A stretch of DNA of 64,000 nt from Chloroflexota bacterium (GCA_014360755.1 JACIWX010000003.1:27678-91677); one strand, 5' to 3'. Counted from the first letter of the stretch, positions 14,009-64,000 are shown. The notes: generated by a model not told the origin, from the sequence alone. A program made the numbers and translations.

Positions 14009-14047
14009 AGAGAGGCCAGTTCCATGTCTGGCCTCTCTTTTATCATC
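14009..14047 (+). terminator. Rho-independent terminator after the ABC ATPase gene
   Basis: Stem agagaggccag/ctggcctctct (11 bp) with loop ttccatgt, followed by tttatcatc. Confidence 0.55.
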
Positions 14048-14062
14048 TTAGGGAGGGTTGCG

Positions 14063-23383: not shown

Positions 23384-23420
23384 GGCAAGCGGCATAGATT
23401 CCGAGCGAGGGGAAGAAAAG

Positions 23421-32898: not shown

Positions 32899-33171
32899 CT
32901 AGCTTAACTCCCATAACACAGTTGCAGTATTCTTCCAGGTTTTCTTTGTAGGTGTTGCAGTGGGAGTAAGGGTAAAGGTTGCTGTCGGTGTTGGAGTGGC
33001 TGAGTGCGTGGGAGAAAGGGTCGCAGTAGGAGTTACGGTTGGGAAGGGAGTCGCTGTGTCAGTTGGAGTTGGTACCGGTGTTGCAGTCGGCGTTGGTGCT
33101 GCGCACGCTGTCATCAAGGCTATTACGAGGAGCGCTACTACGCCCGCCCCGCATCGTGCTTGGTGATTCAT
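32899..33171 (-). CDS. Small Pro/Thr-rich secreted or lipoprotein-like protein
   Basis: A signal peptide ([11 protein letters not shown]) mirrors the N-terminal linker of the family-5 SBPs. It overlaps the 3' end of ftcD in another frame, so either it or the ftcD tail may be an artefact. Confidence 0.3.
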
Positions 33172-47965: not shown

Positions 47966-49786
47966 TCAGTCTAATGGCTCTCCTGATTCATCACCCAGGA
48001 GGTGAGATGGACGGAAAGGAACTGGAAGCAATTCGCGTAAGGTATATACCTTATGATTGCCTGAAACATCCGTTGCCAGGACGCGCATCTCCGGCCCGAA
48101 CTCGGCGAGCACCTGCCGACAGGCACCACACGGTGCTCCCCCGTTCTCAGTAACTACTGCTATGGCAACAAACTCGCGTTCACCATCGCAGACTGCCTTC
48201 AATGCGGCTACTCGTTCCGCACAAACAGTCAAACCGTAAGATACATTTTCGACATTGCAACCGGTATAGACCTTGCCCGAAGCGGTCAAAAGCGCTGCTC
48301 CTACCCGATAGTGCGAGTAAGGTGCATAGGCTTTCTGACGTGCCTCAATCGCCAGGGCAATAAGTTCTTTATCTTCCACGTTTTTCTCCTTGTTCGTTTG
48401 GTGTGGAGATGGATCTGCATCGCTGGCGGCCTCTGTTCCGCTCCCCATCTTGGGCTTCACCCGGGCTGGTACCCCGTAAGCCGTGCTATCCGGCGGTATA
48501 TCGCGGGTGACCACCGAACCTGCCCCAATTCGCGCCCGTGCTCCAATACGCACTGGCGCTACCAACATGGTGTCGCTGCCAATAAATGCCCCATCCTCTA
48601 TCACCGTACGATGCTTTTTAATGCCATCAAAATTGCAGGTAACAGTCCCTGCACCAATGTTTACATCAGCCCCTATCGTAGCATCCCCAATGTAACTGAA
48701 ATGTCCCATCTTTACGCCTGGGCCGAGGTAAGAGGCCTTGACCTCGCCAAAGTTGCCCATGTGCACGCCCTCGGCCAAATGGGCTCCTGGACGCAGGTGA
48801 GCAAAAGGCCCGATGGAGACTTGGTTTTCCACGATTGCGCCTTCAATCACAGAGGCTTCAAGACGGCAGTCATTTCCAATCGTGGAATCGCGGATGATCG
48901 TATTCGGCCCCACCAGGCAGTTCGACCCAATACGGGTAGTGCCTTGTAAATAGGTATTGGGATAGATCACCGTGTCTTGCCCCATCTGCACAGTGGCGTC
49001 AATATAGATGGAAGAGGGATTCACGAGAGTCACTCCGGCACGCATCCAATTTTCGCGGATGCGTTGCCGCACAACCTCCTCAACCTTAGCCAGGTGCAAC
49101 CGATCGTTGACCCCAAGGGTCTCCAGTGGGTCCTCAACCTGGATAGCCTCCACTGCATGGCCTTCGGCTACAGCCATGCCTACCAGATCGGTCAGGTAAT
49201 ATTCGCCTTTTGGGCTGCGTGGCAGCCGTGGTAAATGTGCCCAAAGCCAAGCGGCCTCAAAGCAATAGACGCCGGGGTTTAACTCTTGAATTGCCAATTG
49301 CTCTGGTGTTGCCTGACTTTCTTCGACGATGCCAATCACCCGTCCCTTTGCATCTCGCAGAATGCGACCAAATCCCATCGACTCCTCGTGCACACACGTG
49401 AGCATGGTGATTGGAGTTGAGCGCGTCTCATGAGCCCGAACCAGGGTGTGCAGTGTTGTACCCGAAAGCAACGGCATGTCTCCATACAGCACGAGAACTG
49501 CTTCTGCACGGCCTTCTAATTGCTCGCGTGTCTGAAGCACTGCGTGCCCTGTACCTAACTGTTGTTCTTGAAAAACATAGGTAACGGCGTCACCTAATGT
49601 CTGACGTACCAAGTCCGCTCCGTAGCCCACGACCAGCACAGGTTTCTCTTCACCCAATCCCATTACTGCGTTGAGGACGTATTTGACCATCGGCTGGCCA
49701 GCAATGGGATGCAAAACCTTGGGTAGTTTGGATTTCATCCGTGTGCCTTGTCCAGCGGCCAGTATCACTACCGCCAGCTTGTTCAT
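47966..49786 (-). CDS. glmU: Fusion protein: bifunctional GlmU (GlcNAc-1-P uridyltransferase and GlcN-1-P acetyltransferase) with a C-terminal cytidine deaminase domain
   Basis: A GlmU N-terminus (AVILAAGQGTRMKS, hexapeptide LbH domain) spans about 455 aa. After a ~25-aa linker comes a complete Cdd domain (AYAPYSHYRVGAALL, CAERVAAL, PCGACRQV) in the same frame with no stop. Confidence 0.85.
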   Translation of the reverse strand: MNKLAVVILAAGQGTRMKSKLPKVLHPIAGQPMVKYVLNAVMGLGEEKPVLVVGYGADLVRQTLGDAVTYVFQEQQLGTGHAVLQTREQLEGRAEAVLVLYGDMPLLSGTTLHTLVRAHETRSTPITMLTCVHEESMGFGRILRDAKGRVIGIVEESQATPEQLAIQELNPGVYCFEAAWLWAHLPRLPRSPKGEYYLTDLVGMAVAEGHAVEAIQVEDPLETLGVNDRLHLAKVEEVVRQRIRENWMRAGVTLVNPSSIYIDATVQMGQDTVIYPNTYLQGTTRIGSNCLVGPNTIIRDSTIGNDCRLEASVIEGAIVENQVSIGPFAHLRPGAHLAEGVHMGNFGEVKASYLGPGVKMGHFSYIGDATIGADVNIGAGTVTCNFDGIKKHRTVIEDGAFIGSDTMLVAPVRIGARARIGAGSVVTRDIPPDSTAYGVPARVKPKMGSGTEAASDADPSPHQTNKEKNVEDKELIALAIEARQKAYAPYSHYRVGAALLTASGKVYTGCNVENVSYGLTVCAERVAALKAVCDGEREFVAIAVVTENGGAPCGACRQVLAEFGPEMRVLATDVSGNHKVYTLRELLPVPFRPSHLLGDESGEPLD

Positions 49787-49877
49787 CCCGCCTCCACAGG
49801 AATATGAGTCCAAGAAACCCGTTCTCGCAGGGAAAACGGGTTTCTGAATCGCATTCTAGTACTTTGCGTATAAAGAA

Positions 49878-49948
49878 CTGGGGCGGGAGGGTTCGAACCT
49901 CCGTTAACGGATCCAAAGTCCGCTGTGCTACCATTGCACCACGCCCCA
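49878..49948 (-). tRNA. tRNA-Gln (anticodon UUG)
   Basis: The reverse complement folds as a cloverleaf: acceptor TGGGGCG/CGCCCCA (U1-A72, typical of tRNA-Gln), D stem GTGC/GCAC, anticodon stem GCGGA/TCCGT with loop CTTTGGA, and T arm GGAGG-TTCGAAC-CCTCC. CCA is not encoded. Confidence 0.85.
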
Positions 49949-50016
49949 AAACAATTACAACTTATTGTAACACAAACCAATCATATCTGCAAATGTACCG
50001 AATGATTTAGCGGGGA

Positions 50017-51066
50017 CTAAGCTGCTTTTCGCTGGCGCGACCGCAATTGCCCACATCCTGCTTGGATGTCAATGCCACGTCCCAAACGCACGGTGCTCGC
50101 GATGCCCATGCGATTCAGTTCACGTCGAAATGCCATAATTCGCTCGCGAGTAGATGGCTGATAATCGCATTCAGCAGTGGGATTCAGAGGGATGAGATTC
50201 ACATGGCAGAGCAAGCCTCGCAACAGATGGGCTAATTCCCTGGCTTGTCCTGGGTCGTCGTTAACTCCCTGGATCAGGGCATATTCGAAGCTAATGCGCC
50301 GGCCGGTGCGTTGCACATATTCCTGGCAAGCAGCGAGCAATTCTGCCAAGGGATAACGTTTGTTGATAGGCACTAGACGGTCGCGCAGTGCGTTGTTCGC
50401 TGCATGCAACGAGACTGCCAAACCCACGGAAAGCCCTTCCTGTGCCATACGGCGGATGCCCGGTACCAATCCTACCGTCGAGATAGTGAAGCGCCGTGCA
50501 CCTAAATTGAAGCCGCGATGGTCATTCAAAATTCGTATCGCTTGCCAGGTTGCCTCATAGTTGGCTAATGGCTCGCCCATGCCCATGAACACCACATTGG
50601 TAATGGCTGTCCCTTGCTCTTGCAATTGCCTGGCAAAATAGAGCACTTGGCCCACGATTTCACCGCCGCTCAAATTGCGCTTGAACCCGCTCTGGCCTGT
50701 AGCACAGAAGGGACAACCCAGTGCACAGCCCACTTGGGTCGAGACGCATACCGTATGGCGCCCCTCATAGTGCATGAGCACGCTTTCGATGGTATCGCCA
50801 TCCGGCAACTCCAGCAATACCTTGGTGGTTAAGCCATCCGCAGAAGTGAGGGTTTCCAGAGGCTGCAATGGCTGGATGATCGCCAAGTCGCTCCACTTCT
50901 GACGCAAACCCAATGGTAAATTGGTCATATCGGCAAAATCGAACACCAGCGAGTGGTAAATCCACGCGAAGAGTTGCTGAGCACGGAAGGAAGGCTCACC
51001 CTGCTCAGCAACCCAGGATGCTAGTTGCTCATAAGGCAAGTCCGTGAGTAGAATTTTGGCGCTCAT
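50017..51066 (-). CDS. rlmN: Dual-specificity RNA methyltransferase RlmN (radical SAM)
   Basis: CVSTQVGCALGCPFCATGQ radical-SAM cluster with the RlmN/Cfr family pattern. Confidence 0.9.
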   Translation of the reverse strand: MSAKILLTDLPYEQLASWVAEQGEPSFRAQQLFAWIYHSLVFDFADMTNLPLGLRQKWSDLAIIQPLQPLETLTSADGLTTKVLLELPDGDTIESVLMHYEGRHTVCVSTQVGCALGCPFCATGQSGFKRNLSGGEIVGQVLYFARQLQEQGTAITNVVFMGMGEPLANYEATWQAIRILNDHRGFNLGARRFTISTVGLVPGIRRMAQEGLSVGLAVSLHAANNALRDRLVPINKRYPLAELLAACQEYVQRTGRRISFEYALIQGVNDDPGQARELAHLLRGLLCHVNLIPLNPTAECDYQPSTRERIMAFRRELNRMGIASTVRLGRGIDIQAGCGQLRSRQRKAA

Positions 51067-51869
51067 CCCACAACCCTCTGCCAATCCCGATGTAGAGCAG
51101 CGACATCCTCATAAACCAGATCTGGTACGAGGGGAGAATTTGCTAATTGTTGCTGGTCTGTCACACCGCTCAGGACCAGGATGGTCATTAACCCCAATCG
51201 TTTCCCGCCAAGGATGTCGGTATCGAGACGGTCGCCCAGTATCGCCGTCGTCTTTGGGTCAGTCTGGAGCTTTTGGAATGCGATTTCAAAGATGGCTGGC
51301 TGCGGCTTGCCGATGACCAAGGGAGCAGTATCCGTAGCGGCTTCGATCGCTGCCAAAAGCGCTCCTGCACCGGGAGTCAATTCGCCCTCGGAGGGGAAAG
51401 TTTTGTCGGGATTGGTACCAATGAATTGGGCCCCTGCTCTGATGGCACGGGTGGCGCGCGTCATCTTCTCATAGTCGAACTGGTGATCGAGACCCACTAC
51501 CACGTAGGCAACGTCCGTGTCCTCGCTGAGAATGAACCCTCTCTTTTCCAGCTCCTTTCGCACACCCTGTTCGCCGATCAGGTAGACCTTGGTTCCAGGA
51601 GGAGCAATCTCAGCCAGGTACATAGCCGTAGCTTCTCCCGAGGTCAAAATTTCTTTTTCTTCCACTTGGATGCCCATGCGCGCTAATTTGGCCACATATT
51701 GCGCTGCAGTGAGGGTGGAATTGTTTGTTAATAGGAGAAAGCGCACTCCTATCTGACGTAGGAAACGGAGAAATTCGCCTGCGCCTTGGATAGGGGCATT
51801 TCCGCGGTAGAGGACGCCATCCATGTCAATAAGCAGGCTACGTAGTTGGTTCAACTTAGAAACGGTCAT
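51063..51869 (-). CDS. HAD-IIA family hydrolase (NagD-like sugar phosphatase)
   Basis: DMDGVLY motif I, LTNNS motif II and GDRLDTDI motif IV. Confidence 0.8.
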   Translation of the reverse strand: MTVSKLNQLRSLLIDMDGVLYRGNAPIQGAGEFLRFLRQIGVRFLLLTNNSTLTAAQYVAKLARMGIQVEEKEILTSGEATAMYLAEIAPPGTKVYLIGEQGVRKELEKRGFILSEDTDVAYVVVGLDHQFDYEKMTRATRAIRAGAQFIGTNPDKTFPSEGELTPGAGALLAAIEAATDTAPLVIGKPQPAIFEIAFQKLQTDPKTTAILGDRLDTDILGGKRLGLMTILVLSGVTDQQQLANSPLVPDLVYEDVAALHRDWQRVVG

Positions 51870-51896
51870 GCGGTTTTGCTCATTCCCTCCCCAATA

Positions 51897-53249
51897 TCAC
51901 GATGTCATTCGTTTCGTTCGCTCTAAAATCTTTTCATAGTCAGTAGCTGTATCAATATCCCATAGAAATTCTGGGGACTCTACTTCCACTGACACCACTT
52001 TGTCCGGAAAGCGCGCGATGATTTGCCGTCCACCAACGTCTCCTTGCAGATTCTTCAATTCAGGGAAGAGACAACGGTCGAACAGGGCAGGGATGCCCCG
52101 CTGTCCTTGACACTCAGAAGCCACAATGGGCTTTGTCGTGGCATAATAGGCTTCTAGGATGCGCTCCAGTGCCGCTACGGTAACCAGCGGTTGGTCAGCT
52201 AGGACAAAGAGGGCAGCTTCTGCCCGGCGATCAATGGCATCCAGCCCCGCACGTATGGAGGAGCTGATGCCCGCTTCCCAGTTCTCGTTGAATACCATTC
52301 GGCAGTCTGCTGGAATGTGTTCCGCAATCTGTCCTGCAGCGTGCCCCAGAACGACCACCACTTCATCTACACTGATGGCCCTCACCGCTTCCAGCACGTG
52401 CTCGATCATGGTTTTCCCCGCGAGTGGCAAAAGTTGCTTCGGAACCCCGAAACGCTTGGAAGCCCCGGCAGCCAGGACAATCGCTGAAACCTGACGCCAG
52501 CACTCTAAAACCGGGGTATCGGTTTCAGCGGCGCCAATGAGCACCCTTGTCAATGGAGGAGCGCCTTTGATCTGGCGCGCTATCTGGCGGGCACTAGCCA
52601 GGGCATTTGCGCCCTGAACTTTGTTGATAAAAGGCATCACGCGAGCATGAGCAGGCGCTCCTTTGAGTGCTCCTCGTTCATGGATCAAAAGCCTAGCCAA
52701 GGCCGCAGCAGGGATCACTTCTCCGGGTGCCAAGCCTGTCAATTCGGCAACCAATTGCGGGCGGTGAACGGCTTCTTCGCTCAGCGTGCATCCGACCGCA
52801 TCTATCCCCACGATGGGAACGAAAAGGGTGGTAGCAGTAGGGACGACAGGCTCATAAGCAGCGGGAGCCTTGAGCGAACGCCCTCTAGCTCCATCTGCCT
52901 CAACAATCACTGCATCTGCCAGACTCAAAAGCTCTTCAACTAGGTCTGGTTCAATCCCTTTCAGTTTGTTCTCTGCCTCAATCCGCTTGGCAGCCAGTGT
53001 AATCAGGCTATGAAGGCGCAATGTCTCCTTTGCTAGGTGCAATACCTCTACAGGATCGCTGGACAGCACCAAGGCTTCTCCCACTCCAAGGGATGGCGGG
53101 CGTATCATGGTTGTTGTAGTGGCAATGACCCGCCAGCCTTGGCTGGCTAACTCACGGCCCAGGCGGTACATAACGGTAGTCTTTCCCCCTGCGCCCACCA
53201 GGGAGATAACCTCACCTTTATGAACCTGCAATGCCTCCCAGAGCTGCAT
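51897..53249 (-). CDS. Fusion: YqeC-family selenium-dependent hydroxylase accessory domain (N-terminal) and MocA-like molybdenum cofactor cytidylyltransferase (C-terminal)
   Basis: N-terminal ISLVGAGGKTTVMYRL P-loop and CoA-ligase-like fold match the YqeC family. C-terminal AIVLAAGASKRFG...KQLLPL matches MobA-like NTP_transf_3. The start was chosen where a 4-nt overlap couples it to ygfK. Confidence 0.7.
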   Translation of the reverse strand: MQLWEALQVHKGEVISLVGAGGKTTVMYRLGRELASQGWRVIATTTTMIRPPSLGVGEALVLSSDPVEVLHLAKETLRLHSLITLAAKRIEAENKLKGIEPDLVEELLSLADAVIVEADGARGRSLKAPAAYEPVVPTATTLFVPIVGIDAVGCTLSEEAVHRPQLVAELTGLAPGEVIPAAALARLLIHERGALKGAPAHARVMPFINKVQGANALASARQIARQIKGAPPLTRVLIGAAETDTPVLECWRQVSAIVLAAGASKRFGVPKQLLPLAGKTMIEHVLEAVRAISVDEVVVVLGHAAGQIAEHIPADCRMVFNENWEAGISSSIRAGLDAIDRRAEAALFVLADQPLVTVAALERILEAYYATTKPIVASECQGQRGIPALFDRCLFPELKNLQGDVGGRQIIARFPDKVVSVEVESPEFLWDIDTATDYEKILERTKRMTS

Positions 53250-53251
53250 TT

Positions 53252-56200
53252 CTATCCACTGCCAAAGGGCAAGAAAGGCAGAGTGGACCTCACACCCTGG
53301 AGGATAGCGTACATTTCTGCCGCGCCGATGGTTGAGAACTCTCCTGGAAACTCCTGCTTGAGCTCCATGGCTTTGGCTAGAAATCCAGGAAGCGAGAAAG
53401 TAATGTTCAACCAATCGTTCTCAAAAACCGCCTCATCTGTAGCGTCTGCTATTAAGAGATACGATTCCTTCCCACTTTCTCGCCTCTTGATCATCCATCC
53501 TCTGCTGTCCCTTCCAATGTAAAAAGCATTGTTTTCTTCTTGCCCAAAATCGCTTTCGCTGAGGAAAAGCCGAGGCTTCTCCTGATAAGGTTTTCCTTGG
53601 TGCACACAGAAGGTGGCGCAGTTTCCGCACTCGTTGCAAAAATCATCTATGTGGATGATCTGCCGGCGCTGCTCCACTTGAAACGCCTGTTCTCCTAATA
53701 TGACCAGTTTGCCATTGCGACAGGAGAGTTTGGGTAAGGTCATCTTCATTGGCGAAATCACATAAGCGTAGTTGGCACGGTTAGGGCAGACTTCGACGCA
53801 CTTGTCACAGAGGGTGGAGCATTGCAAACAGCGAGCGGCTTCGCTACGCGCTGCGCTCTCGGTCAGCGTGCGTTCCACTAAATCAAAGTGGTTGCGCCAG
53901 GCAGGAGGAAGTGTCTCTGGTTTGTATTGTGCTTCTTTTCTGGCACGTGCGCGTTTTAGCTGCAAGATGTCCGCTTCTGAGATCTCTGCCATTTTGGCCG
54001 GCAACCGTGTAAACTCGATTCCCAGTTCGGAGCAAATGGCTTCGGCAGCACGTAATCCATCCGCGCAGGCTTCGATAACCGTTGCGGGACCTCGCACCAC
54101 ATCCCCACCTGCATATATGCAGCCCTCTCCCGCGCGTCCGCTCTGAGGATCAACGGCGATGGTGCCGTCTTTGCGTAGAGAAACTGAACTTCCATCGAGA
54201 AAAGCAATGTCCGGCTTCTGGCCAATAGCCACGATAATGGAATCAGCCTCAATGGTAAACTCACTCCCCTGAATGGGAATAGGCTCTCTTCGTCCATCCG
54301 CACCAGGTTCGCCTAACCGGTTGCGCACACATTCCAATGCCGCTACCCGTCCATCCTTCACAATGACCCTCGTTGGAGAAGCGAGTTCGATCAAGGCGTT
54401 GCCTTCGGCGAAGAATGCCTCCTTCTCTTCTTCCGAGGCTGGCATCTCGTGCTTTGTGCGCCGATAGACAACGGTAACGGGCTTCCCCGTGAGTCGACGC
54501 GCCGTGCGAGCGGCATCCATGGCAGTGTTCCCACCGCCAATGACCAACACCTTGGAGCCTAGGTGCAACTTTTCTCCTCCCGCTACCCGTTCCAATAGGT
54601 CAAGAGCCGCAAAGACGCCCGTTGCTTCGATCCCTTCGATATTTAATGGGGTATCCTTAGCAAAGCCACATGCGATGTAGACCGCATCAAAGCCTTGTTT
54701 GAACAACTCTTCTGGTGGTGTGGTGATAGGATGGGCAAGCTCAATTTTGACCCCCATCCTGGCAATGCGCTCGATGTCCTCCTTTACAACAGAGGCAGGC
54801 AACCGGAAGGCAGGGGCGATACGCAACATACCGCCCGGTTTGTCCCTGGCTTCGTAAATGGTTACCTGAACGCCGTTCAAAGCGAGGAAATAGGCTGCAG
54901 CCAATCCTGAGGGACCGCTGCCAATAATAGCCACCTTTCGGCTACGAGACGAGCCTGCCTCGCACTCGCTTTTTCCTTTTACCGGCACTGTAACGTTTCC
55001 CTTTTCAACGGCGACTCGTTTGAGCGCTCGGATGGCTACTGGTTCGTCGTAGTTATTGCGGGTGCAACGGGTCTGACACAGGTGTGTGCAAATATAACCC
55101 GTTACACCCGGTAGGGGATTGCGGCTGAGAATAACTTCCAGGGCGCGATCGTACTCTCTTTGGGCGATCCACCAGACATACTCTGGGATATCCTGGCGTA
55201 CGGCGCATTGCTCCTTACAGGGTGCAGTGATGCAGTCAAAAAGACCGAGCCCCGATGCCACCTTTGGTAAGCCATACGGATGATAACTTTTCTTATACCG
55301 TGGATTCTCTAAAGCCTCGCCGGCTGCTTTTTCCAGGTTAACCAATCTGTTCCAGGTGAGTTCTTCTAGACTGGTAACCCCCTGGTCACGCATCGTTTGT
55401 TCCAAATTTTCCAGGAATTGAAGGAGCCTGGAATAGCCGCCTGGTTTGAGCAGATCAGTAACCGCCGTGACGGGACAAGCGCCGGCTGCCAGAATCGTTG
55501 CCACATTGAAGGCATCGGCTCCTGCCGAATATGAGACGTTTAAATCGCCATTGAACTCTTGAACCAGTTTGTGGAATAGGTTTATGGTAATAGGATAGAG
55601 AGCGCGGCCTGACATGTACATCTCATCCCCAGGAAGAAGCCCCTTGTGGTTCGCCATGGCGAGCGTATTGCTCAGCTTGATACCGAAAGTCAGGTTATGC
55701 TCTGCAGCTACTTGCTTCAGTGTCTTGATCAATTCTACGGCGCGATCGTATTGCAAATCGTGCTCAAATACTGCATCGGGGATATGGATCTCGCGGAAGC
55801 CCAAACGCTCATGGAGGATATGCATCACCATTTCCTTGCCCAGCAGGGTGGGGTTCAATTTCACTGTGGTATGCAGTCCCCTTTCCTCCAACAGGTAGCG
55901 GACGATGCGCTCGATTTCATCCGGGGGGCAACCATGCATGGTGGAGAGAGTAACGTTGTTCGTCAGTTGGGTGGGGATCTCGATATCCGCAAACTGAGGG
56001 AATTGTGTACGTAGGATGCCCTTGATTGCGGCAATTTCTTCCGAGGCGTCAACCATGCGTTCCATAAAGCGCGTCAAGGGTGGGCTTTGTATCCCAGCCA
56101 GGTTATAGCCAACGCTCATATTGAAGATCGTTCCAAGGGGCGCCTTATCCTCAAAACCGAGCAGACGGTGCAGGATATGGATTAGTACCCATGCCTTGAT

Positions 56201-56575
56201 GTACTCGTGCGCGGACTGCTCCAGTTTGAGTTCCTGCGACCACTCCACATTATAGCCCTCGTCCTCCATATCAATACAAGGACGAGGGATTTCCAGTTCG
56301 TCTAGAATCTGCACAGTTTTGAGTTCAATAAAGCGGCCTCCAGAAAGCCAGGCGCAGACAATGTTCTGCGCCAGCTGCGTATGTGGGCCCGCTGCCGGCC
56401 CAATCGGGGTAGCCAGATAATGCCCGAACATGTCCTTAACAGCATAAGGGCTATCCTTGCTGGGCGTGTAGAACAGCGAGCGGGGGATGCCAAAGACCGA
56501 TTGCTTTTCCTTAAGCTCTTTCACGATCCACTCCAGCAGGACCTCAAAAGGTTGGGCGCGCATTTTATCAGACAT
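53252..56575 (-). CDS. ygfK: YgfK-like putative selenate reductase / Fe-S flavoprotein (DPD-like TIM barrel, FAD/NADPH-binding GltD-like domain and 4Fe-4S ferredoxin domains)
   Basis: 1107 aa. It has VAIIGSGPSGLAAAYFLA and VLVIGGGNTAMDAA dinucleotide folds plus Cys clusters (CTHLCQTRC, CLQCSTLCDKCVEVCP, CNECGNCATFC). The architecture matches E. coli YgfK. Confidence 0.8.
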   Translation of the reverse strand: MSDKMRAQPFEVLLEWIVKELKEKQSVFGIPRSLFYTPSKDSPYAVKDMFGHYLATPIGPAAGPHTQLAQNIVCAWLSGGRFIELKTVQILDELEIPRPCIDMEDEGYNVEWSQELKLEQSAHEYIKAWVLIHILHRLLGFEDKAPLGTIFNMSVGYNLAGIQSPPLTRFMERMVDASEEIAAIKGILRTQFPQFADIEIPTQLTNNVTLSTMHGCPPDEIERIVRYLLEERGLHTTVKLNPTLLGKEMVMHILHERLGFREIHIPDAVFEHDLQYDRAVELIKTLKQVAAEHNLTFGIKLSNTLAMANHKGLLPGDEMYMSGRALYPITINLFHKLVQEFNGDLNVSYSAGADAFNVATILAAGACPVTAVTDLLKPGGYSRLLQFLENLEQTMRDQGVTSLEELTWNRLVNLEKAAGEALENPRYKKSYHPYGLPKVASGLGLFDCITAPCKEQCAVRQDIPEYVWWIAQREYDRALEVILSRNPLPGVTGYICTHLCQTRCTRNNYDEPVAIRALKRVAVEKGNVTVPVKGKSECEAGSSRSRKVAIIGSGPSGLAAAYFLALNGVQVTIYEARDKPGGMLRIAPAFRLPASVVKEDIERIARMGVKIELAHPITTPPEELFKQGFDAVYIACGFAKDTPLNIEGIEATGVFAALDLLERVAGGEKLHLGSKVLVIGGGNTAMDAARTARRLTGKPVTVVYRRTKHEMPASEEEKEAFFAEGNALIELASPTRVIVKDGRVAALECVRNRLGEPGADGRREPIPIQGSEFTIEADSIIVAIGQKPDIAFLDGSSVSLRKDGTIAVDPQSGRAGEGCIYAGGDVVRGPATVIEACADGLRAAEAICSELGIEFTRLPAKMAEISEADILQLKRARARKEAQYKPETLPPAWRNHFDLVERTLTESAARSEAARCLQCSTLCDKCVEVCPNRANYAYVISPMKMTLPKLSCRNGKLVILGEQAFQVEQRRQIIHIDDFCNECGNCATFCVHQGKPYQEKPRLFLSESDFGQEENNAFYIGRDSRGWMIKRRESGKESYLLIADATDEAVFENDWLNITFSLPGFLAKAMELKQEFPGEFSTIGAAEMYAILQGVRSTLPFLPFGSG

Positions 56576-56649
56576 ATTTCCCTCCTATTGGCCAGCACTC
56601 TGGAAGACACATTGGAACCCTTAGGTACAACAAGACCATTGTGGGCTTT

Positions 56650-56913
56650 TTACCGGCCTTTCCTTGCCGCAACGTCTTCCTCAACCTGTACAGCAGCGGT
56701 TGCAATGGCCCAACTAACCAGACCCCAAGTGCCGCCACAGAGTGCTATCGCCAGCAGGATGTTACGCAGGGATAGGTTTTGTGCTCGCCATAGGCCCACA
56801 ATGGTTAGTAAAATCGCCAAAACAGCGAAAAAGAGCCCAACCATCACTGGTCCACTCAACCTGCTTTTTCTTTCTCTTGCGCCTTGCTTCATGATTTCCT
56901 CTCCATGCTTCAT
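56650..56913 (-). CDS. Small hypothetical membrane protein (two transmembrane segments)
   Basis: Hydrophobic 87-aa ORF between ssnA and ygfK on the same strand. Confidence 0.35.
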   Translation of the reverse strand: MKHGEEIMKQGARERKSRLSGPVMVGLFFAVLAILLTIVGLWRAQNLSLRNILLAIALCGGTWGLVSWAIATAAVQVEEDVAARKGR

Positions 56914-56918
56914 TAGTG

Positions 56919-58244
56919 CTATATCCGTTGCCAGAGCTTGGCTGCCCGTTCCCGCGCTTTCGCTCCAATCTCTTCTTCGTCCAGCGTCTTCAGCTCGCGG
57001 TTGTGCATGAGCACCTTGCCGGCGACAATCGTTGTGCTCACATGAGCGCCATCCATGCCAAAGATGAGATGCCAGGGCAAATTCCCTGCCGTCAGCGGAG
57101 TGGGTGGGATATAGTCCAAGAAGATGATATCTGCGTACGCGCCAGGAGTCAGTTCAGCCAATGGCCGGGGGTAGAAAATTCCCGCCGTCTGCGCATTGTT
57201 GCGCACAGCCATGGTCAAGACCTGATCAGCGCCTAGCACGCGAGGGTCCTCCTTCGCCAGTTTGTGCAAAAGATACGCTGTTTTCATCTCCATGAACATG
57301 TTGTTCGAGAAGCCATCGTTGCCCAGGCCGACCTCAATGCCGCTCGCCAACATCTGGGGTACATTGGCTACCCCTACGGCGTTGTTCATGTTGGAGCGTG
57401 GGTTGTGCACCACACGGGTACCCGTTTCACGCAGGATATCCATCTCGTGGGCATCCACATGGACACAGTGTGCGGCGATGGTTTTGGGCCCCAAGATTCC
57501 GCGCTGTGCTAAGCGTTCCACCACGCGCAGTCCGTATTTCTTCAGCGAGTCCTGCACGTCAGCAATGCCTTCAGCGACGTGGATGTGGAAGCCGACGTCC
57601 AGACTTCGCACTATCTCTACGGCACGGTCGAGCGTTTCATCCGACAGCGTCAGCGAAGCGTGCAGCCCGAAAGTGCTAGCAAGCAGTCCCTCTTTACCCT
57701 TCACGCGTTGAATGAAGCGGGCGTTCTCATCCAAACCCTCTTGTGCTGCCTTTGGCCCATCCCGATCCGAGACCTCGTAGCACAAACAACACCGTACCCC
57801 TGCTTGGGTTGCTGCCTCAGCGATGGCATCTAGGGAATACGGGATGGCATGTGGCGAAGCGTGGTGATCGAGAAGTGTGGTGGTTCCATTGCGAATGGCA
57901 TCAATGAGGCAAACGAGAGCGCTGTAGCGGATGTCTTCGAGGGTAAGCGCCTTGTCCAGGCGCCACCAGAGACGCTCCAGGATTTGCGGAAAGTCTGCGG
58001 GAGGCTCTCCCCGCAGGCTCATGCCCCGTGCAAACAAGCCATAGAAGTGGGTGTGTGCGCAAATCATGCCGGGCATGACAATCTTGCCACCTGCATCGAG
58101 TTCCTCCTCCCCTGGATATCGGGCTTTCAAATCCGAAGTAGTGGAAACCTCCGCAATAGTGTCACCCCGGATTTGTATTGCTCCGTCGGGTATAATGCGC
58201 GGGTTAGCTCCAAATGTCACCACCGTCCCCTTAACGATTAACAT
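56919..58244 (-). CDS. ssnA: SsnA-like amidohydrolase (chlorohydrolase/aminohydrolase family; putative selenium-metabolism protein SsnA)
   Basis: Amidohydrolase metal-binding motif CAHTHFYG, later HIHVAEG and a conserved Asp. Length, pattern and the YgfK/MocA context all fit SsnA. Confidence 0.75.
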   Translation of the reverse strand: MLIVKGTVVTFGANPRIIPDGAIQIRGDTIAEVSTTSDLKARYPGEEELDAGGKIVMPGMICAHTHFYGLFARGMSLRGEPPADFPQILERLWWRLDKALTLEDIRYSALVCLIDAIRNGTTTLLDHHASPHAIPYSLDAIAEAATQAGVRCCLCYEVSDRDGPKAAQEGLDENARFIQRVKGKEGLLASTFGLHASLTLSDETLDRAVEIVRSLDVGFHIHVAEGIADVQDSLKKYGLRVVERLAQRGILGPKTIAAHCVHVDAHEMDILRETGTRVVHNPRSNMNNAVGVANVPQMLASGIEVGLGNDGFSNNMFMEMKTAYLLHKLAKEDPRVLGADQVLTMAVRNNAQTAGIFYPRPLAELTPGAYADIIFLDYIPPTPLTAGNLPWHLIFGMDGAHVSTTIVAGKVLMHNRELKTLDEEEIGAKARERAAKLWQRI

Positions 58245-58245
58245 G

Positions 58246-59154
58246 TTATCCTCCTTCCGACCCAACTGTGTACCACAGCAGCCGGTTGTCCTTCACTTGG
58301 TATGCGATCTGTCCCGTGTTGCGCAGATGGCTCAGATAGGCATGAAGTGTAGGGTAGAAAAGATAGTATTCTCGGATATTGCGCATCTCGATCTTGTAGT
58401 GCTCGCAGACGGCACTTAGAAGGTTATTGGCTTCAGCGGGGGCTTGAGCAAGATAGCGCCAGATAAAATGCAGGACATCCATTATCTGCGCGATGTTGCG
58501 TTCGATTAGTTCGGTGATGTCACGTTCCAATGAGCCATGCCCTAACACGTAATATGAACAGAAGTAATTACGCAGTTTTTGCAGGCTTTCGAGGCGCTTG
58601 GTAATGCTGTACGCATAGGAAATGGGTGCATTTGCCAATTCCTCTTCTCCAGCCAGGATATCGCCAGTGAAGAAAACATCGTTCACAATATACCCAGTAT
58701 GACTGCCAGTATGGCCAGGCAAGGGTACTGCTTGAACCGTTACTCCAGCGATCTGGACCTCACCTTCGGTGACAATCACATCTGTCGCGCATGGTTGTGG
58801 AGCAAAGCGAGGCGTGCTTAATTCGTTGATGGGTTCTGCACCGCCGAATACGCACATCGAACCCCATGCGGGATGCTGTAACACGATCGAGTCATACAAC
58901 GGGGCATAAACTTTGGCACCTGTATGCTCCACCAGATAGGCATTACCGCCGGTATGATCACCATGGCCATGGGTATTAAAGATAGCAGCTAGCTTGAGGC
59001 CTCGTTCTTCGAGTATTTGCAACAGTTGTCGGCCAGAACGTTGCCCAACGCCTGTGTCAATCAGAAGTGCCTGGTTCCCTTCGCCTACAATAAGGCCGAT
59101 GTTGCTCGCGCCAGGGAGATAATAGACGTTGTGCAGTACATGTTGCAAAGCCAA
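58246..59154 (-). CDS. MBL-fold metallo-hydrolase
   Basis: HGHGDHTGG (HxHxDH) motif with later His and Asp ligands. Its stop abuts the ssnA start. Confidence 0.8.
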   Translation of the reverse strand: MALQHVLHNVYYLPGASNIGLIVGEGNQALLIDTGVGQRSGRQLLQILEERGLKLAAIFNTHGHGDHTGGNAYLVEHTGAKVYAPLYDSIVLQHPAWGSMCVFGGAEPINELSTPRFAPQPCATDVIVTEGEVQIAGVTVQAVPLPGHTGSHTGYIVNDVFFTGDILAGEEELANAPISYAYSITKRLESLQKLRNYFCSYYVLGHGSLERDITELIERNIAQIMDVLHFIWRYLAQAPAEANNLLSAVCEHYKIEMRNIREYYLFYPTLHAYLSHLRNTGQIAYQVKDNRLLWYTVGSEGG

Positions 59155-59238
59155 GGCTTATCCCCTTTGAATTCCTTTTGGCAAGATTATACACGAGTTT
59201 ATGGCAACAATCCAAAAGGAGTTCTGGTTTCTACGCAA

Positions 59239-59390
59239 GAGAGTGTTGAAAATCTTGTCACCCTGAGCAAGCGAAGAGCCTGCCCTGAGTACAACGAAGG
59301 GGTCTCGCGTAACTTTAGCCGTATTTTCAAGTACCGCGAGATGCTTCACTCCGTTCAGCATGACATTGGAAGGGCTTTTTCAACACTCTC
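59239..59390. mobile_element. MITE-like element copy B, about 152 bp. Its inverted ends are GAGAGTGTTGAAAA and TTTTCAACACTCTC. A direct repeat cgcaag flanks it.
   Basis: Homologous to 4159-4312 over its full length, with indels in the CCTGAGC...CGAAGG sub-repeat region. Confidence 0.55.
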
Positions 59391-59462
59391 CGCAAGAGCG
59401 CTTTGCGTTTTCTCTCGAAGGGTGATATACTGGTCTATACTGAACGCAGGAGAAACAATCCC

Positions 59463-60251
59463 GTGCACGAGAGGAGCATTCAGCCAGTCTATCTATCGCC
59501 ACATCTCGATGATGCGGTTCTTTCCTGCGGTGGCTTGATTCATCAGCAGAAACAACAGGGCTTTCAGCCGTTTGTTATCACTTGCTTCGCTGGTGTGCCG
59601 GATTACCAGCTGCTTTCCCCATTTGCGACTATGCAGCATCAGCGTTGGGGAGAAACATTGCATCCCACCGAGCACCGACGCAAGGAAGATGTCCTGGCTA
59701 TGGCGTGCCTCGGTGCAGCCTATGAACACTGGGATTATCTGGATTGCATTTATCGTCGCCATCCGGAGAGCGGTGAGTTTCTTTACACAACGGAAGAAGC
59801 CTTATTCAGTGCTGTGGCAAGTGTGGAACATTATCTGGTTGACGAGCTGGCTGCGCGTCTGAAAGGGGCTTTTTCGGCTCATAATGCGCTCATCTATGCG
59901 CCTCTCGCCGTCGGGCAGCACGTAGACCACCAGCTTGTGTCCCAGGCTGCGCTTAGGTTGCGCGATGACGGGTTCTTTATATGGTTCTATGAGGACTATC
60001 CGTACGCTGAAGATGCCCAAAAGATCGCCAATGCTTTACAATGTTGGGCTTCTCCGCCCAAGCCTACCGTCTATCCGCTGCGTGAAGAAGATATGGCTGC
60101 CAAAATCGCTGCTGTTCGCTGCTATGCTTCACAACTTGCTATACTATTTGGCGACGAAGCATCTGTTCCAGCAAAGATCAAAGCCTATGCATTTGCTGTA
60201 GGAAGTGGTCAGGGCTATGGCGAACGCTACTGGAAGGAAGGGGTGCGGTGA
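59463..60251 (+). CDS. PIG-L/LmbE family N-acetylglucosaminyl deacetylase
   Basis: VYLSPHLDDAVLSCGG matches the PIG-L signature. The GTG start at 59463 follows RBS aggag; the longer TTG-start ORF would begin inside the MITE. Confidence 0.75.
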   Translation: MHERSIQPVYLSPHLDDAVLSCGGLIHQQKQQGFQPFVITCFAGVPDYQLLSPFATMQHQRWGETLHPTEHRRKEDVLAMACLGAAYEHWDYLDCIYRRHPESGEFLYTTEEALFSAVASVEHYLVDELAARLKGAFSAHNALIYAPLAVGQHVDHQLVSQAALRLRDDGFFIWFYEDYPYAEDAQKIANALQCWASPPKPTVYPLREEDMAAKIAAVRCYASQLAILFGDEASVPAKIKAYAFAVGSGQGYGERYWKEGVR

Positions 60252-61792
60252 ACAGTAGGCGTTTGGTGCTGTACTCCCTCGTTGTAATAAGCGGTGCAGC
60301 CACGATGGGCGTGGAAATGTGTGCCTCTCGCTTACTGGCTCCGTACTTTGGCACTTCGTTGCCTGTATGGGGTCTCCTGATCGGATTGCTATTGGCGTAC
60401 CTTTCACTCGGTTACTTTTGGGGAGGGAAGCTCGCAGACCGCTATCCGGAGGCAAGTATATTGTATCAGTTCTCCGCCTGGGCCGGTTTCACTATTGGGC
60501 TGATTCCTTATCTCGCTCATCCCATTCTGCGCTACTCCGTAATAGCCTTTACCGGCTACCATGTAGGAGCACTGCTTGGTTCTCTGGTCAGTGTGCTGGT
60601 ATTATTTGCAATTCCTATCATCCTACTGGGTTTCATTTTCCCCTTTGCCATGCGCCTCAGTATCAAGGATGCTACTTCAAGTGGCAACATAGCCGGGCGC
60701 CTGTATGCTTTATCCACTATCGGCAGTCTCTTGGGGACTTTTGGAAGCGTTTTCCTGCTTATTCCTGCCTTCGGCACACGGCGCACCATCTTTGCTTTGT
60801 CGCTCTTGTTGTTGACCATAGCCATTATCGGCCTGCTCCACACTTCCGGGCGTCGAGCATGGCCCTATATCTTGCTGCTGGCTCTCATTGTTGCCCTTCA
60901 GCTTCTACCTCAGGGGGCTATCAAACCCACGCCGGGTTTGATCTACGAGATGGATTCTGCGTATAACTACATCCAGGTGCTGCGGGATGGAGAGAACCTT
61001 GTCCTGAAATTGAACGAAGGAGAGGGCATTCAATCGGTGTATCATCCACAGCGCATATTGACTGGATATATGTATGATTATTTCCTTTTAGTTCCTTTCT
61101 TTAGAAGCGGGCAACCCGAACCGCCCATAGGTAGCCTGTGCTTAATCGGCTTGGCTGGTGGCACTACTGCGCGTCAGTACAGCGCAGTATTCGGTGCAGT
61201 GCCCATAGATGGTGTGGAAATTGATCCCGCTATTATCGAAGTGGGGCAGCGCTTCTTCGACCTGAACTTGCCTAATTTGCATATCGTGGCAGAGGATGGT
61301 CGCTATTACCTGGCGCACACGAGAAATTGCTATGACGTCATCATTGTGGATGCCTATTGTCCACCGTACATCCCCTTTCAACTCACTACAGTTGAGTTTT
61401 TCCGCCAGGCGCAAGCCCATCTGACCGCGGATGGAGTTGTGGCTATGAATGTGGCACGGACTGAGACAGATTACAGCCTCGTCGATGCCATCGCAAGCAC
61501 ATTGAAAGCCGTCTATCCCAATGTGTACATCATGGATACGCTCAGCAATCTCAATAGCATTGTCATTGCTTCGCGTCAACCTACTGATCTGGCCACCATT
61601 ACTGCTAGGCTCGCTAGCCTGAGTGACCCTATTTTGGGAGACGTGGCTCACCGTGCCGCAGGCCGTATACGCGAATTTCTCGCGCCCAATTCACCCATAC
61701 TCTGCGACGACCATGCTCCTGTGGAACAGATGGTGCATGCGATCGTTGCGCGTTATTTTCTTGGCCAATCCAGTCGGGAGGTAAAGAGGTGA
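60248..61792 (+). CDS. Fused membrane domain and spermidine synthase-like aminopropyltransferase family protein
   Basis: About 7 N-terminal transmembrane segments, then an aminopropyltransferase fold (GLAGGTTARQY, VDGVEIDPAIIEVGQRFF, VIIVDAY). Confidence 0.65.
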   Translation: MNSRRLVLYSLVVISGAATMGVEMCASRLLAPYFGTSLPVWGLLIGLLLAYLSLGYFWGGKLADRYPEASILYQFSAWAGFTIGLIPYLAHPILRYSVIAFTGYHVGALLGSLVSVLVLFAIPIILLGFIFPFAMRLSIKDATSSGNIAGRLYALSTIGSLLGTFGSVFLLIPAFGTRRTIFALSLLLLTIAIIGLLHTSGRRAWPYILLLALIVALQLLPQGAIKPTPGLIYEMDSAYNYIQVLRDGENLVLKLNEGEGIQSVYHPQRILTGYMYDYFLLVPFFRSGQPEPPIGSLCLIGLAGGTTARQYSAVFGAVPIDGVEIDPAIIEVGQRFFDLNLPNLHIVAEDGRYYLAHTRNCYDVIIVDAYCPPYIPFQLTTVEFFRQAQAHLTADGVVAMNVARTETDYSLVDAIASTLKAVYPNVYIMDTLSNLNSIVIASRQPTDLATITARLASLSDPILGDVAHRAAGRIREFLAPNSPILCDDHAPVEQMVHAIVARYFLGQSSREVKR

Positions 61793-62463
61793 ACATTTCC
61801 TCGCTCTCTACTCGAGTTGTGCACATCCTCTTTTTGGTCTGCACTCCTTTCATACTTCTCCTATCCAACCTGTACCTTTTGGCTACCCCAGCGTTTATCC
61901 GCCATGAGTATAGCAAGCCGAATTTCCCGCCAGCGGTCTTGTACAGCGATGCTGAACGCCTCTCTCTCGCAGAAGCAACACTGCATTACCTTCGCTCCAC
62001 CGAAAGCGTTGAATATCTCAACAATTTACGCTCTCGAGGGCAAGTGGTCTATAACACCCGGGAGGTGAAGCATTTGGTGGACGTAAAGCGGGTGATGAAC
62101 GCGGCTTTCTGGATACATGGGATCTGTCTCCTGCTATGGATTGCGGCGGCAGCCTTCGTCTGGCGTCAACGCCAGGAGTGGTACAGCGCTTTGCGGGCGA
62201 TCTTCATGGGCTGCCTAGCGCTTTTTGCGGTATTGCTCACTATTGGCTTGTTGGCTTATGCCAATTTTGATTTGTTTTTCACTGCCTTTCACCGTCTTTT
62301 CTTCGAAGGAGATTCCTGGCTGTTTGCGTATTCCGATACGCTCATCCAATTGTTCCCAGTCCCATTCTGGATGGATGCTACCTGGGCGCTGGCTCTGCTA
62401 ACCATGGGCGAATGCCTCATCCTAGGCGCGGCAGCCTGGGCTCTGCTCCGGCGCTTTCAATAG
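61789..62463 (+). CDS. TIGR01906/DUF1461-like integral membrane protein
   Basis: Four transmembrane segments with the N-terminal LLSNLYLLATPAFIRHEY pattern I recall for this family. Low certainty. Confidence 0.45.
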   Translation: MNISSLSTRVVHILFLVCTPFILLLSNLYLLATPAFIRHEYSKPNFPPAVLYSDAERLSLAEATLHYLRSTESVEYLNNLRSRGQVVYNTREVKHLVDVKRVMNAAFWIHGICLLLWIAAAAFVWRQRQEWYSALRAIFMGCLALFAVLLTIGLLAYANFDLFFTAFHRLFFEGDSWLFAYSDTLIQLFPVPFWMDATWALALLTMGECLILGAAAWALLRRFQ

Positions 62464-62516
62464 CAGGTTCCTATGGCGGGTGATTTTCTGGAAGGCTATT
62501 ACCTGGAAGGAGTCCA

Positions 62517-63155
62517 ATGATAAGCATTGAAGAAGCGCGGTTGTATTACTCTGGTGTAGATGCAGCACACAATTTTGACCACGTTTTGCGCGTTTGGAGG
62601 TTGGCTGAACGCATTGGCAAAGCCGAGGGCGCTGACATGGAGATCCTTCAGGCTGCTGTTTTGCTACATGACGTGGCGCGTGTCGCTGAAGATGAAGGTG
62701 GACCTTGTCATGCCCGCGAAGGCGCCGAACGCGTGCGGGCGATTTTGGCGGGGCATCCGCTGGAGAAGGTAGAGGCAGTTGCCCATGCCATTGCTACCCA
62801 TCGTTTCCGTGACTCGGCCATACCCCAGACATTGGAAGCGCGCATCTTGTACGATGCTGATAAATTGGACGCAATCGGTGCCATTGGAGTGGCACGCGCC
62901 TATGCCATAGCGGGGCGGCATGCACAACGGCTTTGGGCTGATGTGCCGCAAGAGTATGCTCAGCGGAGCGTAGAAGAATCACGGGGGGATGTAACAGATG
63001 CGCAACATACGCCGGTGCACGAATACATCTTCAAACTGTCCAAACTCAAAGATACGCTTTTCACGGCCACTGCACGGGCTATTGCCAAGGGCCGCCATGA
63101 ATATATGGTGCAGTTCTTCGAACGGTTAGAGCGTGAGGTAAAGGGTGAGCTTTAA
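62517..63155 (+). CDS. HD domain phosphohydrolase
   Basis: HNFDHVLRV...LLHDVAR (H..HD...D motif). Confidence 0.75.
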   Translation: MISIEEARLYYSGVDAAHNFDHVLRVWRLAERIGKAEGADMEILQAAVLLHDVARVAEDEGGPCHAREGAERVRAILAGHPLEKVEAVAHAIATHRFRDSAIPQTLEARILYDADKLDAIGAIGVARAYAIAGRHAQRLWADVPQEYAQRSVEESRGDVTDAQHTPVHEYIFKLSKLKDTLFTATARAIAKGRHEYMVQFFERLEREVKGEL

Positions 63156-63180
63156 AAGCAAGCATGGGCTTGTAGGTTAT

Positions 63181-63215
63181 TGACAATTGTCTATAGATGG
63201 TGTAGAATATAAGTA
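63181..63215 (+). promoter_or_regulatory. Consensus sigma70 promoter (TTGACA-17 bp-TAGAAT) for rpsA, followed by a leader of about 300 nt
   Basis: The sequence ttgacaattgtctatagatggtgtagaatat. Confidence 0.55.
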
Positions 63216-63515
63216 CCTGAAGTGTAATCAATAATAACAGATGGTCTAATCGTGTTTTATAGGCCGTTCGGCTGCGCCGGGCCGGACTAGGAACGGTACA
63301 CTGTTCAGAGCATAGTTGGAAAGAAACATACTCTCAGCGTTGTAGCATCATTGCATCGTGGGGAGAGTAAAGACAGTCAGTCTTCTCTGATCTTGTGTGG
63401 ATCCGCTTGGGTGGGTCTCGATTTCTGGCACTCGGTTTCCGTCTGCATTTGGCGAAGCTGAACACCGAGTGTTTTTGTTTTCGACTGTCAAACAAGGCAT
63501 TATGGAGGATAATTC

Positions 63516-64000
63516 ATGAGCAATGATGTAACTCCCATGGGCAAGGATCTTATGTCGCCAGGGGAGGAGGAAAAGCAGACAAATTCTCTTTTATCCACGC
63601 ACGCAAGAAATGGACCTGCTATGGAGCAGGCGCCATCTCTCGCAGCGCAGCAAACATCCTCAACAGCAGAGCCCACGGAGACCGCAGTCCCATCCACCCA
63701 GCGTCCGGCAAATGAAGGTGCGGCGGCTGCAGCACCAGCAAGCAATGCGCCGTTGCAGTCCATTGTCATGCAGCAAGCGCTTTCTGATGAATATGCTTAT
63801 GTGCGGCCCAAGCGAGGAGAGATCCGCCTGGGGAGAGTCATGGACATCCGGCAGGATAGTATCTTGGTAGATCTGGGGCTCAAACATGAGGGCATCATCC
63901 CAGCAGAAGACCTGCAGCGGGTGGGCCAGAATGCAATCGAATCCGTCTCCGTTGGGGACGAAATACCAGTGTATATTCTCAGGCCGGAAGGAGGTCCAGA
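63516..64000 (+). CDS. rpsA: 30S ribosomal protein S1, 5' part only (runs off the window end; absent from the ORF track because no stop is reached)
   Basis: RBS ggagga then ATG 63516. An S/T/A/P-rich N-terminal extension is followed by an S1 domain (EIRLGRVMDIRQDSILVDLGLKHEGIIPAEDL...VGDEIPVYIL). Confidence 0.8.
   Translation, partial: MSNDVTPMGKDLMSPGEEEKQTNSLLSTHARNGPAMEQAPSLAAQQTSSTAEPTETAVPSTQRPANEGAAAAAPASNAPLQSIVMQQALSDEYAYVRPKRGEIRLGRVMDIRQDSILVDLGLKHEGIIPAEDLQRVGQNAIESVSVGDEIPVYILRPEGGP

Follow-up and report, generated by a model that had tools for sequence, protein, structure and literature searches.

A minus-strand operon in a 64,000-nucleotide stretch of a Chloroflexota bacterium, an uncultured member of the Anaerolineae (GCA_014360755.1, JACIWX010000003.1:27678-91677; the whole stretch is called the window here, and positions are counted along it) encodes an SsnA amidohydrolase and a YgfK Fe-S flavoprotein next to a fusion of YqeC and MocA (YqeC::MocA) and a HAD-IIA phosphatase. 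We propose, with a probability of about 60%, that it represents a split reductive urate pathway, in which a catabolic and a cofactor-maturation module share one operon and the hydroxylase is encoded elsewhere. In the catabolic module, YgfK would reduce, and so dearomatize, 2,8-dioxopurine, and SsnA would at once hydrolyze the reduced ring; the two reactions would be the committed steps in anaerobic, reductive breakdown of uric acid (the 2,8-dioxopurine pathway). In the maturation module, the MocA domain would join CMP to Mo-molybdopterin to form molybdopterin cytosine dinucleotide (MCD) for hydroxylases of the xanthine dehydrogenase family. The YqeC domain, a predicted SIMIBI-class P-loop NTPase, would act with MocA, probably as a nucleotide-dependent chaperone or hand-off factor, and the HAD-IIA phosphatase would be a third partner, possibly removing a pyrophosphate or nucleotide by-product. 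YqeC::MocA and HAD would in this way mature the MCD cofactor of the distant hydroxylase. The family assignments, synteny, fusions and fold behind this proposal come from the present analysis, and the reactions of YgfK, SsnA and MocA are taken from the literature.

Profile searches bear out the identities, coordinates and shared orientation of five genes as given in an earlier note made from the sequence alone; all five are on the minus strand. The operon opens with an MBL-fold metallo-hydrolase of 302 amino acids (aa) (58246..59154; PF00753, E = 9.5e-26; HGHGDH motif intact), which starts at a TTG codon with the ribosome-binding site AAAGGGGA ahead of it. SsnA follows (56919..58244; 441 aa from ATG 58244, with the open reading frame [ORF] open back to TTG 58265), then a small membrane protein with two predicted transmembrane helices (56650..56892; 80 aa, or 87 aa from ATG 56913), YgfK (53252..56575; 1107 aa) and the YqeC::MocA fusion (51897-53249). 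The likely starts of SsnA (ATG 58244) and the small gene (ATG 56892) were taken from gene calls on identical metagenome contigs. Junctions had mostly been described as abutting, and they are tight: 1 nt between MBL and SsnA, 26 nt between SsnA and the small gene (5 nt with ATG 56913), 74 nt between the small gene and YgfK, and 2 nt between YgfK and the fusion. The 4-nt overlaps that had also been described do not occur within the five genes; the only one joins HAD-IIA (51063..51869; 268 aa; TIGR01460), which starts 27 nt downstream of the fusion, to the radical-SAM rRNA/tRNA methyltransferase RlmN (50017..51066; PF21016 and PF04055). Ending the set at 51897 had left out both of these co-oriented genes, of which HAD-IIA belongs with MocA and RlmN is the housekeeping end of a conserved backbone. 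A tRNA-Gln gene lies beyond (49877-49949). Identical gene order in three related loci (L004, L084 and L086; fusion 61-77% identical) indicates that the operon is real and not a chance arrangement. GC content is 0.53-0.55 over the operon and about 53% over the window, with no compositional break at the locus, and recent horizontal transfer was rejected on this match.

Both catabolic enzymes are assigned with confidence. SsnA scored 570 bits against NF005540 (cut-off 444) and 557 bits against TIGR03314 (cut-off 455.5) and aligns with E. coli SsnA at full length with 36% identity. YgfK carries Fer4_20 and Pyr_redox_2 domains, aligns with E. coli YgfK over 1041 positions with 42% identity, and passes the equivalog model TIGR03315 (1044 bits; cut-off 835; model positions 1-991 of 1012), so that it is not the generic homologue that had been considered as an alternative. 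Phylogenetic profiling in 2008 co-scored YgfK, SsnA, YqeC and YgfJ with YqeB and SelD (PMC2276186), and the earlier note placed SsnA and YgfK among the accessory genes that mark selenium-dependent Mo hydroxylases. This description is outdated, as the urate pathway has since been reconstituted in two 2025 preprints (10.1101/2025.05.19.654654; 10.1101/2025.04.24.650524). XdhD/DOPDH, a selenium-dependent Mo hydroxylase, converts urate to 2,8-dioxopurine (isoxanthine) and requires SelD (10.1101/2025.04.24.650524). YgfK is the 2,8-dioxopurine (isoxanthine) reductase that dearomatizes the ring according to both preprints, and SsnA opens the ring of the reduced compound to give ureidomethylhydantoin, product appearing only when YgfK and SsnA were combined (10.1101/2025.05.19.654654). 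HyuA, YgeW/YqeA or UacY, YgeY and YgeX carry out the later steps to pyruvate (2025 preprints). Since they were reconstituted as a reductase and an amidohydrolase acting after XdhD, SsnA and YgfK are catabolic enzymes and not cofactor accessories, which agrees with another of the readings offered in the earlier note, a purine catabolic module; its suggestion that the hydroxylase is encoded elsewhere is one that we also infer.

The N-terminal domain of the fusion (residues 1 to ~245; 52515..53249) is YqeC-like, as predicted, with 187 bits against TIGR03172 (cut-off 73), and the C-terminal domain (residues ~252-450; 51897..52496) is a presumed CTP:molybdopterin cytidylyltransferase best described by TIGR03310, the leading model by a wide margin over the runner-up (the DVU_1551 family; 145 bits, cut-off 315). 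PF19842 and PF12804 (the latter at E = 2e-41) also match the fusion. Identity to the E. coli proteins is 35% for YqeC and 25% for MocA. The MocA domain has the features of a MobA-like nucleotidyltransferase fold, and its N-terminal LAAG is presumably nearer to the TAAG of E. coli MocA than to the LAGG of MobA. MocA makes MCD, and a CTP-dependent activity of the domain in this fusion is presumed. Structure prediction of the full fusion gave a confident two-domain model (pLDDT 92.5, pTM 0.91), in which both domains are predicted to sit in a defined mutual arrangement. The YqeC domain is modeled as a SIMIBI P-loop NTPase, the class to which the metallochaperone GTPases UreG, HypB and MeaB belong, and agrees with this class in predicted fold, Walker A motif and Walker B region. 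Its invariant residues GAGGKT, E-x-D-G and N-K may be the counterparts of the Walker A, Glu-type Walker B and [NT]KxD motifs of cofactor-inserting GTPases. No relative of YqeC with a solved structure was found by sequence.

The fusion is not peculiar to this locus and belongs to a large family. A search of a 90%-identity protein collection (E<=1e-10) returned 1923 homologues, the top 120 of which all carry PF19842 and PF12804 and measure 382-509 aa, mostly 440-480; all 50%-identity representatives (E<=1e-30) yielded 1248 proteins, and among the best 150 most are full-length two-domain proteins. YqeC::MocA is the commonest architecture, occurring in at least 150 clusters at 50% identity. The order is reversed to MocA::YqeC in P0406, P0422 and P0427, a second MocA is added in P0371, P0393 and P0419 (YqeC::MocA::MocA), and a HAD domain is appended in L012 (773 aa; 8843-11164) and L080 (728 aa; 1638-3824) to give YqeC::MocA::HAD. 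MocA::HAD proteins also occur, with a separate YqeC gene just upstream in the case of P0352 in L093/L094 (L093:10001-11359), as well as in P0317 and P0332. These varied architectures are independent fusion events, and by Rosetta-stone reasoning they support the tie between YqeC and MCD synthesis that had been drawn from the window's own fusion, with YqeC working alongside MocA, and extend it to the HAD-IIA phosphatase. Recurrent fusion in the combinations YqeC::MocA, MocA::YqeC, MocA::HAD and YqeC::MocA::HAD would mean that YqeC acts in MCD synthesis where cytidylylation or hand-off takes place, and nominates the phosphatase as an unrecognized partner. The HAD-IIA gene of the window scored 174.6 bits against TIGR01460 (cut-off 100), an assignment at subfamily level, and retains all four catalytic motifs (DMDGV, TNNS, GKP and GDRLDTD).

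Where this fusion family sits in other genomes was surveyed in GTDB contigs, taking one genome per species, which yielded 563 stretches coding for a relative; the top 80 come nearly all from Anaerolineae or other Chloroflexota. Proteins of E. coli and of the window were compared by tblastn with these 80 loci and 10 kb of flank on each side (some contigs being shorter). xdhA-like genes lie within 10 kb in 30 of the 80 and yqeB-like genes in 47, which ties the fusion family to Mo hydroxylases. Fusions linked to xdh or yqeB are all more distant from the window protein (33-40% identical, with full-length similarity), and their loci are ordinary hydroxylase loci, many with a second, stand-alone MocA-like gene after the fusion (e.g., L071:11358-11936). 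One locus, L078 on a 265-kb contig of the Anaerolineae metagenome-assembled genome F14_21, is alone among the 80 in combining the fusion with xdhABC-like, yqeB-like and YgeW-, YgeY- and YqeA-like genes; SsnA, YgfK and HyuA are absent there within 10 kb. HAD adjoins the fusion in 12 of the 80 genome loci.

In closer relatives, the operon separates into a backbone and a cargo. The window, L004, L084 and L086 share the order MBL-SsnA-small-YgfK-fusion-HAD-RlmN. Of the relatives compared, L004 derives from JBMFPM01, L084 from GCA_964478075.1 and L097 from GCA_964478725.1. L005 to L007 have SsnA and the small gene, a gap of about 1.3 kb, then the fusion and HAD spaced about 0.7 kb apart; in L006, the one of the three that was ORF-scanned, the order is RecJ-NUDIX-SsnA-small-reductase-fusion-His-phosphatase-HAD, and the reductase is a DHO_dh protein with two 4Fe-4S clusters of the UacX/clostridial PydA type. 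The NUDIX hydrolase of L006 (6585-7037) occupies the MBL slot and its histidine phosphatase (11247-11960) lies between fusion and HAD, so that nucleotide and phosphate hydrolases recur around the module. L095 and L097 keep MBL-small-fusion-HAD-RlmN with neither SsnA nor a reductase, in the same upstream frame as the window (HD-Lit-spermine-synthase-like-PIG-L, divergent from MBL), and the five genes are accordingly not the single unit they had been taken for. L013 likewise has neither enzyme and reads RecJ-(different MBL)-small-fusion-HAD; its 213-aa MBL protein was rejected as an orthologue of that in the window. The order fusion-HAD-RlmN is kept in L009, L013, L028, L080, L084, L086, L093, L095 and L097. 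Conversely, L098 (5282-10204) has MBL and SsnA followed by a PAS/histidine-kinase response-regulator hybrid and a UacX-type reductase and is without the fusion, possibly a regulated three-enzyme version of the module, L088 (10001-12238) has MBL-SsnA, and L087 and L089 have RecJ-MBL alone. On this gene order, the conserved Anaerolineae backbone consists of MBL, the small membrane protein, YqeC::MocA, HAD-IIA and RlmN, with SsnA and a reductase (YgfK or the UacX type) as variable cargo. The two cargo genes are present or absent together, as expected if their enzymes are obligately coupled, whereas the backbone of YqeC/MocA/HAD and the small membrane protein is independent of them.

No Pfam or NCBIfam family matches the small protein, yet its place in the gene order is unchanged in L004-L007, L084 and L086, and its motif G..WGL.SWAIA is invariant. 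It also stands directly upstream of the fusion where SsnA and the reductase are missing (L095, 10996-11268; L013, 9680-9964), and is a genuine conserved gene for a protein with two hydrophobic helices. The MBL family is narrow and confined to Anaerolineae (133 proteins at E<=1e-10, all >=43% identical), and the closest solved structure by sequence, 4ysb, is not close (E = 3e-8). Membership in a characterized subfamily was rejected, the matches to glyoxalase II, B3 lactamases and ETHE1-like proteins being weak. Mere synteny baggage was rejected as a full explanation for MBL because the pair MBL-SsnA is also seen in another genomic frame (L088 and L098), and a dedicated role, such as replacement of HyuA, is unsupported because MBL persists without SsnA (L095, L097, L087 and L089). 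In these arrangements, the MBL hydrolase goes with both modules.

A hydroxylase was sought in the whole window by tblastn (E<=1e-3) with every protein of the E. coli ygeV-ygfT region and SelD. Apart from the expected cross-matches (GuaD to SsnA and YgfT to YgfK), these queries matched the YgfK, SsnA, YqeC and MocA orthologues only, and xdhA/B/C/D, ygfM, yqeB, selD, hyuA, ygeW/X/Y and yqeA gave no match in the window. A hidden Mo subunit in the window was also rejected: the only further ORF above 700 aa (14024-16405) is of the GH31/melibiase type, and the rest have housekeeping roles or serve peptide transport, among them tRNA synthetases, Obg, peptide ABC transporters, M24 peptidases, MurE and a GH31-like protein. 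The window flanks the locus by 52 kb on the low-coordinate side and by 4.8 kb on the high-coordinate side, where contig L090 from the same sample (100% identity over 59365-64000) reaches 9.2 kb past the window end and adds S1, DksA, a second MBL gene, ArgRS and PolA. The extension holds no xdh, yqeB or selD by tblastn, so that on this side, the one that could be checked, the sequence just past the window's end is free of a hydroxylase. The earlier statement that no Mo subunit, YqeB or SelD occurs within 20 kb on either side holds for the 52 kb of the low side, whereas the 4.8 kb and 9.2 kb of the high side together cover about 14 kb. No tRNA-Sec was found, tRNA-Gln being the sole tRNA seen in the window. 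Under the split-pathway reading, the hydroxylase (XdhD/DOPDH type), YqeB, SelD, HyuA, YgeW/YqeA or UacY, YgeY and YgeX would be located elsewhere in the genome; this placement, together with the roles given to YqeC, HAD, MBL and the small protein, is what we infer.

Several observations weigh against a split pathway. The Mo hydroxylase, YqeB, SelD and downstream pathway enzymes were not found in about 75 kb of contiguous sequence. Against TIGR03310, the MocA domain aligns with the full model (1-188) and scores 182.6 bits, about 4 bits short of the cut-off (186.45). Among the HAD-linked relatives, none has xdh or yqeB within 10 kb, the arrangement being fusion-HAD(-RlmN) instead, and in a neighbor-joining tree without support values the HAD-linked fusions group apart from those linked to xdh or yqeB, so that the HAD-linked fusions may form a paralogous subfamily serving another function. 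Persistence of the backbone without SsnA and YgfK means that their adjacency could be historical. YqeC was rejected as a MobB homologue, as hhalign aligned the Walker A motif only, with a probability of 14%. Deletion of yqeC in C. difficile gave no phenotype, unlike that of yqeB (PMC11448449), and the selenium trait cannot be diagnosed from YqeC by itself (PMC5029168).

The main alternative is that the organism would have no urate-reducing hydroxylase at all and the operon would be a scavenger module, with YgfK and SsnA using 2,8-dioxopurine from neighboring bacteria, or another oxopurine or pyrimidine, and YqeC::MocA-HAD serving as a housekeeping MCD operon for unrelated Mo enzymes whose adjacency is historical. 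E. coli and Enterococcus release isoxanthine, xdh is missing from the ~75 kb, and close relatives (L095, L097, L013 and L093) have the backbone without SsnA and YgfK, set among the housekeeping genes RlmN, Rpe, Asp23, FakA, DegV and RecG, while L098 has MBL-SsnA-UacX without the fusion. We nonetheless consider scavenging rather unlikely. E. coli, from a different phylum, also has mocA, yqeC, ygfK and ssnA adjacent, and the slot beside the fusion is held by two types of reductase, YgfK and UacX swapping in place, which argues for selection on the arrangement and for a functional linkage of the two modules. YqeBC and SelD, moreover, were present in all cultured strains with the pathway cluster (10.1101/2025.04.24.650524).

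The separate grouping of the HAD-linked proteins, free of xdh and yqeB, would fit a different nucleotide-activated pathway, in which the MobA-like transferase, P-loop domain, HAD, MBL and small protein make or recycle a nucleoside diphosphate-linked metabolite or cofactor other than MCD. The combination of nucleotidyltransferase and HAD phosphatase is typically found in other pathways, the best HAD matches, all sub-threshold, are phosphoglycolate or pyridoxal phosphate (PLP)-type phosphatases, and the shortfall against TIGR03310 recurs in L080 (168.8 bits, with a weak match to CofC). That model is still far ahead of the next one, the triple fusion L012 passes it with 191.6 bits, and the similarity to fusions beside xdh and yqeB extends over the full length, so that we regard a product other than MCD as distinctly improbable. 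A maturation island for a labile-selenium Mo hydroxylase, with all five genes as accessories including SsnA and YgfK, would account for the phylogenetic-profile co-occurrence of these two with YqeB and SelD (PMC2276186), yet it is contradicted by the 2025 biochemistry, in which both were reconstituted as catabolic enzymes without Mo or Se, and by the division of the five genes into backbone and cargo in relatives; we give it hardly any credence.

Among the closest known systems is the E. coli ygeV-ygfT purine region, whose core yqeB-yqeC / mocA(ygfJ)-ygfK-ssnA-ygfM-xdhD is the reductive uric-acid cluster (Li et al. 2025; Liu et al. 2025). Both have adjoining YgfK, SsnA, YqeC and MocA orthologues and the same presumed YgfK/SsnA chemistry. 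Unlike the E. coli cluster, the window has no XdhD/YgfM, YqeB, HyuA, YgeW, YgeX, YgeY, YqeA or purine transporters nearby, combines YqeC and MocA in one polypeptide, adds the MBL hydrolase, the two-helix membrane protein and the HAD-IIA phosphatase, and has the set embedded in a housekeeping operon. In the C. difficile-type variant, UacX (PydA-like DHO_dh with two [4Fe-4S]) replaces YgfK; the sister locus L006 has a UacX-type reductase in the YgfK slot by domain scan and L005 and L007 share its layout, whereas the window carries YgfK. Li et al. (2025) described Chloroflexota SsnA neighborhoods as unusual, with an F420/luciferase-like reductase, but none was seen in the Anaerolineae loci examined, which have YgfK or UacX there. 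With the selenium-cofactor trait of SelD, YqeB and YqeC (Haft & Self 2008; Zhang et al. 2008), the window shares the YqeC equivalog and lacks YqeB and SelD, while the distant Chloroflexota YqeC::MocA fusions adjoin yqeB and xdh. An analogous architecture of a MobA-like nucleotidyltransferase and a P-loop NTPase is found in the pair that makes molybdopterin guanine dinucleotide, the transferase MobA with its P-loop adaptor MobB, which also occur fused (NF011056), but YqeC resembles MobB only at Walker A and the nucleotide is presumed to be CTP, not GTP. In knock-outs the P-loop partner is dispensable in both cases, MobB as well as YqeC.

Transcription of the operon would be driven from the divergent intergenic region between the MBL gene and a PIG-L deacetylase gene (59155..59402), the presumed promoter region, which contains a perfect TATAAT on the minus strand (59191-59186). 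Promoter and terminator scans did no better than on shuffled sequence. Rfam at the gathering threshold found only tRNA-Gln in the whole window and at E<=1 found no match over 51500-59700, so no riboswitch or RNA regulator was detected upstream of the operon. The independent Logan contigs that were examined end in this region, at ~59265-59365, L001 and L002 on the operon side and L090 on the PIG-L side (in three samples), which suggests strain variation or a hard-to-assemble feature there. Elsewhere in the window, a formiminotransferase (FTCD_N and FTCD; 33059-34063, minus strand) is found 18 kb away from the operon, and members of its family have roles in histidine degradation and in clostridial purine fermentation. 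A 615-aa protein of unusual architecture (47966-49813, minus strand) joins a GlmU-like nucleotidyltransferase and a hexapeptide-repeat region to a C-terminal cytidine/dCMP deaminase domain, and two tandem M24 (creatinase/prolidase-type) peptidase paralogues (22217-24572, plus strand) lie within a peptide ABC-transporter cluster. An M28/M20-like peptidase (42872-44284) gave no match to YgeY.

All of the protein families are known, public databases already list the proteins with automatically assigned names, and the operon would hold no surprise for a specialist in purine catabolism. New, as far as the literature was searched, are the backbone-and-cargo anatomy, the conserved small membrane protein and the multi-configuration YqeC/MocA/HAD fusion family; no paper joining YqeC with cytidylyltransferase and molybdenum was found. 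YgfK and SsnA were characterized only in 2025, in gut bacteria, and are seen here in environmental Anaerolineae, where the pair lies apart from the hydroxylase and the other pathway genes and behaves as gain-or-loss cargo in a cofactor operon. More tentatively, and with our own doubts outweighing our support, we suggest that YqeC, MocA, HAD-IIA, the two-helix membrane protein and MBL could together be an unrecognized machine for maturing MCD, possibly in a selenium-bearing form, in which the YqeC NTPase would couple cytidylylation to cofactor hand-off and HAD would pull or edit the reaction. If true, this would give a concrete biochemical role to YqeC, a "selenium trait marker" since 2008, and add a new enzyme to molybdenum cofactor biosynthesis. 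The locus thus offers a testable handle on the long-unexplained YqeC and, in HAD-IIA, a candidate new player in MCD maturation.

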